In this document: piece after piece, positions 4,454-41,425 of the stretch
Layout: each line of letters begins with the position of its first letter
Numbering within the stretch: the first letter of the stretch is position 1
DNA from: Spirochaetaceae bacterium UBA5200
Lineage (GTDB): Bacteria; Spirochaetota; Spirochaetia; Treponematales; UBA12059
Direction of reading: 5' to 3'
NCBI GenBank assembly: GCA_002412825.1
Contig: DHVU01000009.1
Coordinates: forward strand, 35,323-99,322
Length of the DNA stretch: 64,000 nt
The notes under the pieces: model-generated
Told to the model about the DNA's origin: nothing
What the model saw: only the letters and a program-made list of their open reading frames with translations
The model's database searches: none
Program-made: the position numbers and the translations under genes

Positions 4454-4486
4454 GCGCCCCGCGCGGGCTTCCAGCTAGTCTTTACT

Positions 4487-4602
4487 TAGTTCCTCGAAGC
4501 TTGTGTCTGAGCCAGCTGCTACACAAGCGATTGCGGCGCAATGGACAGGCCCACGCTAGCTAATGCGGCGTTTATGGCAAAAACACAAGCTTCGAGGAAC
4601 TA
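4487..4602. repeat. 116-bp palindromic (MITE/REP-like) element, copy 1
   Basis: 20-nt arms TAGTTCCTCGAAGCTTGTGT (4487-4506) and ACACAAGCTTCGAGGAACTA (4583-4602) are perfect complements around a 76-nt core. A second copy lies at 8996-9111. Confidence 0.8.
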
Positions 4603-4610
4603 GCTGTTTT

Positions 4611-5174
4611 TTACCGGTACAGCCCTACGCGATAGATCTTTAGATCGGGCTCAAAATCAAGGTAAGCGGCCACCAGCGCAATGTTCTCCATATACTGCAC
4701 CCGCGGGGCCTTGCGCATGGTGCTCTCCGCCTTGAAAGCGCTCCAGGGAAGGCGTATCGTCTGTATCCCGCCGCCAAGCTCTAGAAGCGCCCCGTAGTAA
4801 CTCCAGGGAAAGACATTATCCTTAGTGCGCAGGAAGGCGTAGTACTTGCCTCCCGGAGGCGCGGAGAGCGTAAGCTCAACGCCCGCGTAGGCAGAGGCAT
4901 CGAAGCGTCCCGCCTCGTTATCCAGGCGAACCTGGATAAAGCCGCCGCCCCTGGTCACCACTTTACCCGCCAGGCGCAGGGCAAGCCCGTCCGGCGTATT
5001 GACTATGCCCGGCTCCACGAGATCCGAGCGGCCGCCCATGACCCGGTCGGCGAAACCCCGCCAAGACCAGCCAGGCGCGCTGGTTAGGCCCGCCTGAAAA
5101 TCCGCAAGCGGCAGGTCTTGTGCATACAAAGGAAGAGCCGCCGCAAGGGCTAAAAATGCGATTAGATAGTTCAT
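4611..5174 (-). CDS. CIA30-domain family protein, secreted
   Basis: MNYLIAFLALAAALPLYAQ signal peptide. WSWRGFADRVMGGRSD matches the CIA30 signature W..D.VMGG.S. Start moved to ATG 5174; the upstream part of ORF 4611..5336 looks non-coding. Confidence 0.7.
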   Translation of the reverse strand: MNYLIAFLALAAALPLYAQDLPLADFQAGLTSAPGWSWRGFADRVMGGRSDLVEPGIVNTPDGLALRLAGKVVTRGGGFIQVRLDNEAGRFDASAYAGVELTLSAPPGGKYYAFLRTKDNVFPWSYYGALLELGGGIQTIRLPWSAFKAESTMRKAPRVQYMENIALVAAYLDFEPDLKIYRVGLYR

Positions 5175-5453
5175 TTGTTGAATATAATAAGGCCTGAGCA
5201 AGAAGTCGCGCCGGCCGCCGCCCCAGCCTGCCCGCGCCTGGGTTCCGGTTTGCCCGCTTGACCAAGCGTCGATTTCCACGCTACAGATATACTGCGGTTC
5301 CGCCCTCTCGGCGTCGAACGAAACATCTTCTTTCACTCGGCAGAAGCCGGAATCCCGGAGCGCGAACTTCCACTACAGCGACAAACTCAACGCGAGCGAC
5401 CTCATGAACGAGAGCGTTCTCGCTGTCTCCGGGATTATTGCAGGGGAGCATCC

Positions 5454-7813: not shown

Positions 7814-8998
7814 ATGAATACCAGCAGCGCCAACCCGCGCATCTCCCTGCCGCGCCTTCACCGCGGGCCCTATATATGGTCGCTTTATCTGCTCCTCGGG
7901 CTTTTTTCCTTCATGCTTACCATGATAGGCCCTATGGTGCCCTACCTGCAAGACGAATTCCGGATGGACTATACCCTGGCTGGCCTGCACCAGAGCGCCT
8001 TTGCCCTCGGCATGGTCGGCACGGGTCTCTTCGCAAGCCGCATCATTAAGCGCCTGGGCTTAACCGCAAGCCTTTACGGCGGCATGGCCGGCATGATGCT
8101 GGCGTTGCTCGTCATGGTGTTGGCAAAAAGCCCGGCCTTTACCCTGGGCTCCGTATTCCTCATGAGCCTGGGCGGCACCGTTGCCCTCGTGGCCATTCAG
8201 ACGGGCTTTGCCAACGGCCCCGAAGGATTCCAGTCAAAGATGATACTTGAAGGCAACGTGATGGCCAGCGCCATGACCATGTTCGTTCCCCTGGTGCTCT
8301 TAGCGGGTACGCGCTGGGCGCTCGGCTGGCGCATAGTCTTTCCCTTCATGTTGATCGCCTTCCTCATGATATCCGGCTTCGGCCTGCCCGCCATGCGCAA
8401 ACATCAGGCTACCAGGGACGAGAAGGCTGACGCGGGCGGGGGCAAGCTCAAGAAAGGCTATTGGCGCATGTGGCTGCTCGTGTTCTTCGGCGTATCGGTT
8501 GAATGGGCCATTGCCTTCTGGTGCATGACCTACCTCTTGGGCCTGCCCGGCAATTCCCGCGGCCTTGCCGCCGCCGGCACGGTCGTGCTGGGCCTGTCCG
8601 CGGTGCTAGGGCGCTTTACCGCGAGCCGCATAGGCGACAGGATACGAACGGAGCGCCTCGTGCTCATAACCATGGCCATAACGCTCATAGGCTTTCCCCT
8701 CTATTGGCTGCGGCTCAACGCGCCGCTTACCTTCCTTGGTCTGGCCCTCTGCGGCTTAGGCTCGTCCAATTTCTTCCCGCTGGGCTTTTCCCTGGCCCTG
8801 CGCCACGCTAGGAGCAACGCGGCCAAGGCCAGCTCCTTCATGCCCATTGCCTCAGGTTCGGCCATAGGGCTCGCGCCCTTCCTCTTGGGCCGCCTTGCGG
8901 ACCTTGCCGACCTGCGCTTTGCGCTCTGGTACATACCCATCGGGGTGATCGTCATGCTGGCCATACTCATCGTCGACTCGCGGCATAGCCTTAATTAG
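7814..8998 (+). CDS. MFS transporter
   Basis: Hydrophobic 394-aa multi-TM protein with two-halves MFS topology. Substrate unknown. Confidence 0.75.
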   Translation: MNTSSANPRISLPRLHRGPYIWSLYLLLGLFSFMLTMIGPMVPYLQDEFRMDYTLAGLHQSAFALGMVGTGLFASRIIKRLGLTASLYGGMAGMMLALLVMVLAKSPAFTLGSVFLMSLGGTVALVAIQTGFANGPEGFQSKMILEGNVMASAMTMFVPLVLLAGTRWALGWRIVFPFMLIAFLMISGFGLPAMRKHQATRDEKADAGGGKLKKGYWRMWLLVFFGVSVEWAIAFWCMTYLLGLPGNSRGLAAAGTVVLGLSAVLGRFTASRIGDRIRTERLVLITMAITLIGFPLYWLRLNAPLTFLGLALCGLGSSNFFPLGFSLALRHARSNAAKASSFMPIASGSAIGLAPFLLGRLADLADLRFALWYIPIGVIVMLAILIVDSRHSLN

Positions 8999-9111
8999 TT
9001 CCCCGAAGCTTGTGTCTCGGTGCGAAGTACCGCATTATCTAGCGTAGCTTAGATCGCCTAAACGCTAGGACAAGCGTCTCCACGCTTAAAAACACAAGCT
9101 TCGGGGAACTA
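8996..9111. repeat. 116-bp palindromic (MITE/REP-like) element, copy 2
   Basis: Arms TAGTTCCCCGAAGCTTGTGT (8996-9015) and ACACAAGCTTCGGGGAACTA (9092-9111) around a 76-nt core. The first TAG is the stop codon of the MFS gene. Confidence 0.8.
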
Positions 9112-9131
9112 CAATTGCCTTAACGAGGGCT

Positions 9132-9157
9132 AAAAAACGCCCCCTCGCGAGGGGGCG
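9132..9157 (-). terminator. Rho-independent terminator of the TolC-MacAB-LTXXQ operon
   Basis: CGCCCCCTCG/CGAGGGGGCG, a perfect 10-bp stem at 9138-9157, followed on the minus strand by TTTTTT (9132-9137). Confidence 0.7.
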
Positions 9158-9166
9158 CTCGTGCCC

Positions 9167-9703
9167 TTATTTACCGAGCTTCTTGGACAGATAGTCGAAG
9201 AAGGCGAAGAAATCCTGGCCCATGGTCTTGCTCTTGTCTATGAGGGGGTTAAAGTCGCCGCCGGCAATGTAGGTGGCTAGAGAACCCGCGCCTGAGCTGG
9301 CTCCTGCGTTGCTGCCGGCGCCGCTGCCCTGAACGTTCGCGCGCTCGCTTTCTTTGGCGGCGGCGAGCTTGTCTATAGCCATGAGCTGAGCGGGCGTAAG
9401 GATGCGATCCTCTACCTGAGCTAAAAGAAGCTTTGCGCGCGAAGGCTCGATGCGCTTGGCGTTCTTAAGCTCGAGGGCTATGTCATAGAGCTTCTTCAGT
9501 TGGTCGGCCGATAGGGCGGGCACTTTGCTATCCTTCTCTATAAGGTTGAGGTAGCCGAATACCCTGCCTAGATCGAAGACAATCGCCGTATCCTCCCGGG
9601 CTTTCTGCGTTGCCGGGTCGGGCGTAGTTTGTGCGAAGCCGCTCAAGGGCGCGAGGGCTATCAGAGCCGCGAATACTGCTAGTCCAATCATCATGCGTTT
9701 CAT
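9167..9703 (-). CDS. Periplasmic LTXXQ-motif protein (Spy/CpxP/ZraP-like), last gene of the efflux operon
   Basis: Signal peptide MKRMMIGLAVFAALIALAPLSGFAQ. Two LTXXQ-like motifs (ALSADQLKKL and RILTPAQLMAI). Gly/Ser linker. AAGGAG RBS. Confidence 0.55.
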   Translation of the reverse strand: MKRMMIGLAVFAALIALAPLSGFAQTTPDPATQKAREDTAIVFDLGRVFGYLNLIEKDSKVPALSADQLKKLYDIALELKNAKRIEPSRAKLLLAQVEDRILTPAQLMAIDKLAAAKESERANVQGSGAGSNAGASSGAGSLATYIAGGDFNPLIDKSKTMGQDFFAFFDYLSKKLGK

Positions 9704-40099: not shown

Positions 40100-40146
40100 G
40101 GAGTGGAGGCGGCTTCTAACTACTAGCTTCTGATTTTATCCTTTGG

Positions 40147-40591
40147 AATCTAGAATCTAGTAGCTAGAATGCTGCGCGGGTATCGGGGACCGAATCCCCG
40201 TCTTATTCTAGATTCTAGCTCCTAGATTCTAGCTTCTATCCACTGTTCTAGAATCTAGAATACAGAATCTAGAATGCTGCGCGGGTATCGGGGACCGAAA
40301 TCCCGTCTTATTCTAGCTTCTAGCTTCTAGCTTCCATCCACTGTTCTGGAATCTAGAATACAGAAGCTAGAATGCTGCGCGGGTATCGGCGGCCGAGTCC
40401 CGTCTTATTCTAGATTCTAGATTCTAGATTCTAGCTTCTATCCACTGTTCTAGAATCTAGAATACAGAATCTAGAATGCTGCGCGGTTATCGGCGGCCGA
40501 GTCCCGTCTTATTCTAGCTCCTAGATTCTAGCTCCTAGATTCTAGCTCCTAGATTCTAGATTCTAGATTCTAGATTCTAGATTCTAGATTC
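40147..40591. repeat. Hierarchical CTAG-rich palindromic tandem repeat array (4 higher-order units built on 7-bp TCTAGAA/TTCTAGA repeats)
   Basis: A GC-rich core GCTGCGCGG(G/T)TATCGG..CCGA..TCCCGTCTT starts at 40171, 40276, 40374 and 40478. Each core is flanked by inverted heptamer arrays. Stop codons occur in all frames. Confidence 0.9.
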
Positions 40592-40595
40592 TTTT

Positions 40596-40616
40596 CCCTC
40601 TTCCCTCTTCCCTCTT
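40596..40616. repeat. (CCCTCTT)x3 polypyrimidine microsatellite
   Basis: Three exact tandem heptamers directly abutting the CTAG array and 8 nt from the LUD gene stop. Confidence 0.9.
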
Positions 40617-40623
40617 CCGACAC

Positions 40624-41342: not shown

Positions 41343-41425
41343 TGCCGGCAGTGGGACTTGAACCCACACGTCCTTGCGGACAGCAGATTTTGAGTCTGCC
41401 GTGTATGCCATTTCACCATGCCGGC
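41343..41425 (-). tRNA. tRNA-Leu (anticodon CAA), type II with long variable arm
   Basis: The minus strand reads GCCGGCATGGTGAAATGGCATACACGGCAGACTCAAAATCTGCTGTCCGCAAGGACGTGTGGGTTCAAGTCCCACTGCCGGCA. It has a 7-bp acceptor stem, anticodon loop CT-CAA-AA and T-arm GTGGG-TTCAAGT-CCCAC. CCA is not encoded. Confidence 0.92.

Follow-up and report, generated by a model that had tools for sequence, protein, structure and literature searches.

MITEs such as MITEAba12 of Acinetobacter and the Correia elements of Neisseria are non-coding elements of about 100-150 bp whose terminal inverted repeats (TIRs) are identical to those of an insertion sequence (IS). They are flanked by a target site duplication (TSD), occur in many, mostly intergenic copies and are present in some strains and absent from their relatives. 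MITEAba12 has a length of about 113 bp and a TSD of 9 bp. The family of hairpin elements described here resembles these systems in all of these general traits; two of its copies lie in a 64-kb stretch of contig DHVU01000009.1 of Spirochaetaceae bacterium UBA5200, which is referred to below as the window. In contrast to MITEAba12 and the Correia elements, the transposase of the partner IS stays under the threshold of every Pfam and NCBIfam model and the TSD is located 2 nt outside the conserved TAG/CTA tips. Furthermore, the family is old, with cores of 44% and arms of about 91% identity, and its length is almost fixed at 116 bp. Spirochaetes have been reported to be rich in MITEs (PMC11602168). 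We consider it very probable that the 116-bp hairpins are MITE copies, which are non-coding and share their ends with transposase-encoding ISs.

Each of the two elements consists of two 20-nt arms and a core of 76 nt, as the first-pass annotation had stated and a pattern match confirmed. The arms of copy 1 are TAGTTCCTCGAAGCTTGTGT (4487-4506, plus strand) and its exact reverse complement (4583-4602), those of copy 2 are TAGTTCCCCGAAGCTTGTGT (8996-9015, plus strand) and again the exact reverse complement (9092-9111). No further arm match with up to 3 mismatches was detected in the 64-kb window, where none was expected from 100 shuffles either. The inserted unit comprises 120 bp and includes two additional bases on each side (CT and GC in copy 1, 4485-4604; AT and CA in copy 2, 8994-9113). 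It is flanked by 9-bp target duplications: the left TSD of copy 1 (TAGTCTTTA, 4476-4484) shares 6 of its 9 bases with the right one (TGTTTTTTA, 4605-4613) in the register lying 2 nt beyond TAG/CTA, and the two TSDs of copy 2 (ATAGCCTTA, 8985-8993; ATTGCCTTA, 9114-9122) agree at 8 of 9. According to the comparison of 51 oriented copies, copy 1 lies on the minus strand and runs opposite to both copy 2, which lies on the plus strand, and the consensus of the family. The heptamer ACGCTAG common to both cores is real, and so are the stretches that had appeared mutually inverted; their cause is that one core had been compared with the reverse complement of the other. The heavy divergence ascribed to the cores is therefore genuine in one part, but in the other part an effect of the inversion of copy 1 relative to copy 2.

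Both copies are situated just 3' of genes, each between convergent ORFs. The right TSD of copy 1 includes the stop codon (TTA on the plus strand, TAA on the minus strand) of an ORF with a CIA30 domain (4611-5336, minus strand). Copy 2 has hit the 3' end of an MFS transporter gene (PF07690; 7814-8998, plus strand), whose stop codon is now the TAG of the left TIR. Judging from a reconstruction of the sequence, the reading frame would have ended with SLNEG before the insertion and now ends with SLN, using the TAG of the element. Neither element contains an ORF of at least 80 aa, 116-120 bp being too short for a transposase, and a promoter and terminator scan found nothing within either of them. 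An intrinsic terminator on the minus strand at 9140-9154 (CCCCTCGCGAGGGGG and a subsequent T run) belongs to the ORF 9167-9703 on the same strand; the site into which copy 2 was inserted lies between the terminator and the MFS gene end. Elsewhere in the window, positions 40146-40618 are occupied by a tandem array (104-nt unit, 4.1 copies, 86% matches), which holds runs of the heptamer ATTCTAG followed by 3.6 copies of TTCCCTC and is located about 730 bp from a tRNA gene (41343-41425, minus strand).

A search for empty sites and target duplications in relatives, as proposed in the first-pass annotation, revealed both an exact empty site and the 9-bp TSD. A syntenic contig from another metagenome (L115/L116) is 86% identical over 4.2 kb; its alignment stops at window position 8991, and it lacks copy 2. 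The empty site consists of the single 9-mer GTAGCCTGA. Subtraction of AT, 116 bp, CA and one 9-mer from the window yields exactly the length of L115 across the junction, therefore the insertion of copy 2 added 129 bp (120 + 9). Additional filled and empty pairs were found between MAGs (L079 versus L080; L060 versus L064). The site of copy 1 is occupied in L116 by a remnant shortened by an internal deletion (L116:2011-2065), in which the left arm is partial, 21 nt of the core are left and the right arm is intact. Together with the empty copy 2 site, this remnant indicates that copy 1 predates and copy 2 postdates the split of the strains. A segment of 945 bp (L116:1099-2043) with a 238-aa ORF (no Pfam match) lies between an AraC-type gene and the remnant, and in its place the window has 122 bp (4459-4580) including the left part of copy 1; this difference is a rearrangement adjoining the element.

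The register of the TSD was determined by an offset scan of 73 copies. The direct-repeat signal lies on the diagonal at which left and right offset sum up to 4, with a peak at 2/2. At this position 15 of the 73 copies show a 9-bp direct repeat with at least 7 of 9 matches; the expectation is 0.9, and none of 2000 re-pairings of the flanks gave more than 5. The consensus of the flanks is TAAGCCTTA-AT to the left and AT-TAAGCCTTA to the right of the element. We took the mobile unit as 120 bp because the two outer bases are common within subfamilies, e.g. AT...AT in the L004 group. Two observations on the flanks speak against a MITE: a clear TSD is kept in only about 20% of the copies, and the 2 nt that separate the TSD from the TAG/CTA tips vary across the family. 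Variable tips are unusual for transposons. A TA duplication of the IS630/Tc1 type, suggested by the sequence T-TA-GTTCC...GGAAC-TA, is ruled out by the 9-bp TSD seen both at the empty site and in the offset scan. A MITE derived from IS630/Tc1-mariner was likewise rejected, the partner protein having no DDE_3 match.

The genome-wide pattern search that had been suggested for the arms showed dozens of copies dispersed over several genomes. Scanning one genome per species with the arm pattern GTTCCNCGAAGCTTGTGT, one perfect arm being required, we obtained at least 80 loci, most of them in four Treponematales/Spirochaetaceae/Treponemataceae MAGs. A minority of the matches were single ones in unrelated phyla, which corresponds to the chance level for 17 specified bases. 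Pairing of plus- and minus-strand arms resulted in 56 elements, and 26 further ones were retrieved by a metagenome scan anchored on the inner arm halves. The family comprises more than 80 copies over Treponematales/Spirochaetaceae MAGs and metagenomes, with at least 24 paired copies in one MAG and at least 23 in another. Viral contigs scanned with the arm pattern gave no match. Near-identical cores occur at separate loci of a single MAG (L004, L023, L032, L046, L072 and L076) and therefore indicate recent copying. No long open frame spans 47 of the 51 oriented copies.

Within the window, where only two copies lie 4.5 kb apart in a similar context, one might think of a local duplication or of integron attC-like recombination sites. 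Both ideas have practically no probability left and are refuted by the census of the family and by the empty site. A local duplication is at odds with dozens of dispersed copies in several genomes, with cores that are only partly alike and mutually inverted, and with the absence of one copy and the presence of the other at the orthologous sites of the relative. attC sites would be arranged in cassette arrays, but these elements are not; they occur scattered, with 1-2 copies per 8-kb locus. Furthermore, the arms as read from the sequence (TAGTTCC.../...GGAACTA) are devoid of GTTRRRY/RYYYAAC core sites.

About ten copies possess an additional, slightly shortened arm that adjoins one of their ends from outside, in direct orientation and with a period of 19-21 nt (L006:905-943, L017:3755-3793, L021:7458-7498, L029:4016-4056, L035:7078-7118, L050:1949-1987, L051:1823-1880, L064:5169-5209, L078:4098-4136 and L080:3469-3507). 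The extra arm is usually composed of NN and arm positions 2-20 or 4-20, and in L051 there are three consecutive ones. Such arms may have arisen when an element inserted into the arm of an already existing copy and the DNA separating the repeated arms was then lost; the CGAAGCTTG part of the arm is similar to the target consensus TAAGCCTTA. At L008:1757-1837 the arm-like sequence GGTTCCCCGAAGCTTGTGTC is found twice in direct orientation, 61 bp apart, in an apparent GC-rich tandem repeat; this is not a normal MITE copy. Hairpins at L096:10690-10814 and L114:766-890 as well as in L095, L102 and L109 have no more than the inner CGAAGCTTGTG/CACAAGCTTCG motif in common with the family, while their outer arms are quite unlike; the one in L096 is a near-perfect palindrome of 125 bp with flanks that are palindromic, too. 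These hairpins may represent subfamilies that are further removed, or they may be unrelated to the family.

The two arms of a copy often differ at their innermost positions (GTGT versus GTTG), and with the help of this asymmetry and of a weak core consensus 51 copies were brought into a common orientation. Their mean gapless core identity is 44% compared to 26% for shuffled cores, at a mean arm identity of 91%. These values indicate that the cores are homologous, old and almost free of indels. The claim that length rather than sequence is conserved applies to the elements of the genome scan, 51 of which measure exactly 116 bp and the remaining 5 115 bp, and in the main MAGs this length is near-fixed despite a core divergence of 56%. 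It does not extend to the metagenomes, where lengths range from 102 to 125 bp: 116 bp (9 elements), 115 bp (4), 125 bp (5, a second mode), 114 and 117 bp (2 each) and single elements of 102, 108, 113 and 118 bp. A near-fixed length combined with a core identity of 44% is not accounted for if the core simply drifts neutrally, and it counts against a plain MITE. It can reasonably be inferred that a constraint on the end-to-end spacing for the synapsis of very short DNA could hold the length.

The two copies in the window differ at arm position 8, where a T-to-C exchange in one arm is mirrored by A-to-G in the opposite arm (T:A in copy 1, C:G in copy 2). The first-pass annotation had taken this as a compensatory change indicating selection on pairing, either in an RNA stem or in a cruciform, and had named TIRs as another option. 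Tested across copies, the mirrored change proved to be real in the wider family as well. Position 8 is polymorphic (C/T/A/G); among 56 copies we counted C/C in 21, T/T in 16 and A/A in 2, and the two arms are mismatched in 17 (30%), with no preference for wobble-compatible states among the mismatched copies. The symmetric states are structured by genome (C/C in 17 of 24 copies of one MAG, T/T in 6 of 6 in another). A permutation stratified by genome gave 39 symmetric copies versus 32.8 expected (p ~0.02), a marginal value that ignores descent within subfamilies; for JBFZES alone, 12 were symmetric versus 8.0 expected (p ~0.05). The genome scan requires one perfect arm and is blind to changes mirrored elsewhere in the arms, while the metagenome scan is unbiased at positions 1-8. 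In the latter, positions 5-8 vary jointly (TTCC/GGAA, ACAT/ATGT, GTTA/TAAC and GGTA/TACC), and the MITE arm variants TTCC, ACAT and GTTA correspond to TIR variants of distinct IS lineages. Mirrored changes of this kind are to be expected when one protein reads both ends and the ends of each lineage co-evolve with, or derive from, its IS. Selection on pairing could thus not be upheld, given the unpaired copies and the variants following IS TIR lineages, whereas the TIR option stands. The matched arm change reflects the evolution of transposon ends, not a selected RNA structure.

The same data were used to assess a structured RNA, i.e. a 3'-UTR stabiliser, terminator or small RNA whose stem is kept by selection so that the arm changes would be truly compensatory. 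The position of both window copies directly 3' of genes and the symmetry of position 8 in 39 of 56 copies would fit such an RNA, and each of the window elements folds far better than shuffled sequences (z -6 to -8.5). However, this strong fold is due to the perfect 20-bp inverted repeat alone: folding of the cores only gave a mean z of -0.64 and thus no signal above shuffles, an RNAalifold consensus of the 51 oriented copies contained the arms but no core structure, and only the arms emerged from a best-partner scan of the same copies. Nor would an RNA stem be expected to be mismatched at position 8 in 30% of the copies without wobble preference, or to occur in opposite orientations in the window. 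No Rfam match was obtained at the gathering score or at E <= 1. The TSDs and empty sites show insertion, and identical arms bound a transposase gene in autonomous elements. A structured RNA is therefore very improbable.

Complementary arms could also be a property of the MITE itself if they were actively kept complementary by hairpin mismatch repair, by template switching or by a hairpin or cruciform needed in transposition. Position 8 seems free to vary and is yet symmetric beyond the within-genome chance given above, and the core contains two weak mirror motifs in exact register (36-38/79-81 and 45-49/68-72), with a mirror pairing of 0.45 in the core compared to 0.34-0.40 in shifted controls, as if the element had begun as a palindrome. 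The excess of symmetric copies may however be inherited from symmetric masters. Active maintenance also has to account for the 17 of 56 copies that are still asymmetric, for positions 19-20, which are stably so, and for the private one-sided arm mutations, which are common. The orthologous sites of copy 1 differ at position 8 (T/T in the window, T/C in L116), but the direction of this change cannot be polarised. We regard such maintenance of the arms as unlikely.

Ends of the same type as the MITE arms were found around a larger element. In L020, the arm-like sequences TAGTTCCTCGAACCTTGTGC and GTACAAGGTTCGAGGAACTA lie 1.2 kb apart and enclose an ORF of 375 aa (protein at L020:2817-3944). In L082, a 1.2-kb element that contains an ORF of 375 aa is bounded on either side by TAGTTCCTCGAAGCTTGT, and the copy 1 arm has exactly this sequence in its first 18 nt. 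Contigs encoding homologues (L076:2286-3395 and L081-L088) repeat the layout of an ORF of about 375 aa between two TIRs. The ends of the ISs read TAGTTCCTCGAACCTTGT in L020 and L085, TAGTAC(C/A)TCGAACCTTGTGT in L081 and TAGTGTTACGAAGCTTGT in L076, whose protein is 38% identical. A G13C variant (AACCTT/AAGGTT) is mirrored at both ends of three ISs.

The protein of about 375 aa starts with a CxxC...CxxC zinc ribbon, which is followed by a helix-turn-helix (HTH) and an RNase-H/DDE fold. Its AlphaFold2 model has a pLDDT of 84, and the best Foldseek matches in the PDB are retroviral integrases, the ISCth4 (IS256-family) transposase, MuA and Hermes. The residues D126, D216 and E266 are invariant in the aligned homologues. 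In our reading of the secondary-structure string of the model, made without superposition, the strands 123-130 and 211-215 would contain or adjoin D126 and D216, and the helix 258-276 would include E266. These would correspond to beta1, beta4 and the helix following beta5 of the RNase-H fold. Pfam detected only HTH matches and no catalytic domain, and a profile search against PDB sequences yielded only zinc-finger noise. We found 1498 homologues by a word-indexed search, many of them on contigs of 1.2-1.5 kb and a few labelled as 'transposase-like' by JGI, and 953 clusters at 50% identity (E <= 1e-10) in public metagenomes by an exhaustive profile search. A tblastn search against plasmids gave no match.

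In its N-terminal zinc ribbon and HTH, its size of about 1.2 kb and its single ORF, the partner IS resembles the ISL3, IS1 and IS1595 families. A TSD of 8-9 bp is typical of these families. NCBIfam models of this group were matched weakly and N-terminally by the 30 aligned members: NF033550 (ISL3) by all 30, NF033558 (IS1) by 27 and NF050000 (the IS1/IS1595 zinc domain) by 12. In contrast to genuine members, these matches are confined to the N-terminal approximately 100 residues and lie far under the curated cut-offs, the best ISL3 match having an E of 5.5e-11. No match to the DDE_Tnp_ISL3, IS1 or IS1595 catalytic domain was detected in the protein. An assignment to ISL3 was rejected, the query transposase reaching 27.5 bits compared to the NF033550 cut-off of 180 bits, only with its N-terminus and with no match to PF01610. 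To our knowledge, the TIR TAGT....CGAAGCTTGT is also unlike the ends of ISL3 or IS1. We conclude that the protein is probably a DDE transposase of an IS group unnamed in current profile libraries and that it is related to ISL3 and IS1 in its DNA-binding N-terminus only. The family encoded in L020, L076 and L081-L088 is probably an unclassified IS group.

The link between the MITEs and these ISs has its gaps. A tblastn search of the window with the transposase gave no match; the earlier statement that no transposase is present there accordingly holds for the transposase of this family, but it also means that a homologue is missing from the immediate surroundings of the two copies. ISs in the MITE-rich MAGs have related, but not identical TIRs (AACCTT type in L020, GTTA type in L076). 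The IS with the exactly matching TIR (L082) comes from another assembly than those with the MITE bursts. Repeats are often missing from MAGs, and the scan pattern would miss such ISs. No recognisable 9-bp duplication was present around the five IS insertions inspected. A comparison of the MITE core with subterminal IS sequence by eye showed no convincing similarity beyond the motif CAAGCG.

Repetitive extragenic hairpins of a different origin had to be considered, too. REPINs are doublets of REP sequences mobilised by a RAYT transposase of the Y1/HUH type, and the elements resemble them as hairpin doublets of about 100 bp with conserved arms or ends, a variable middle, frequent symmetric arm variants and a multicopy, intergenic spread. 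Unlike in REPINs, the same ends flank a gene for a DDE-fold protein and not a Y1 (PF01797) transposase, and a single arm is not a hairpin-forming palindrome (only the 6 bp AAGCTT). The elements furthermore come with a 9-bp target duplication and exact empty sites, whereas we know of no REP or REPIN insertion that produces either of them. We see next to no chance that the elements are REPINs. The identities IS630/TA, REPIN/RAYT, attC and Rfam RNA each fail in a defining feature.

Being short, non-coding and multicopy, with TSDs, TIRs shared with an IS that encodes a DDE-fold protein, and exact empty-site polymorphism, the hairpins display the features of MITEs. As MITEs they would behave as follows. 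The 20-nt arms and the 2 poorly conserved outer bases are the TIRs of the 1.2-kb IS family, and the transposase of about 375 aa would be supplied in trans by an IS copy elsewhere in the genome. Binding to both identical ends, it would mobilise the 120-bp unit by cut-and-paste or copy-and-paste. Targets similar to TAAGCCTTA would be cut with a stagger of 9 bp to take up the unit, and the repair of this cut would generate the 9-bp direct duplication. As a single protein would read both ends, the arms would be alike within a lineage and different between lineages, and such matched, lineage-specific arms would give the appearance of a 'compensatory' substitution. The core would be free to drift, with no selection on its structure. 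Less likely, though conceivable, is a combination of all the more specific features: an unclassified IS family (TIRs TAGTnnnnCGAAGCTTGT, 9-bp TSD, transposase of about 375 aa with zinc ribbon, HTH and DD(50)E) whose MITEs are constrained in length at 116 bp and have arms homogenised through a hairpin.

A literature search on this MITE family or its IS, with ISfinder outside its scope, found general surveys only and no description. The element is ordinary, though apparently uncatalogued. Its recognition explains a recurrent hairpin of 116-120 bp in Treponematales/Spirochaetaceae genomes as a MITE for the purposes of annotation, and one of its insertions changed the stop codon of an MFS transporter gene together with the final codons before it. 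It also links the MITE to a sizeable group of 'hypothetical proteins' of about 375 aa, which are probably transposases of an IS group without a profile model. The case furthermore advises caution, as RNA structure should not be deduced from mirrored substitutions in inverted repeats that are the ends of a transposon. No new kind of biology is opened by these elements, and there is no interest in them as functional RNAs or cruciforms. What modest interest they have comes from the unnamed transposase family and from a behaviour that combines constrained length and conserved arms with a drifting core, and the fixed length next to this drifting core may interest students of the synapsis of short transposons.
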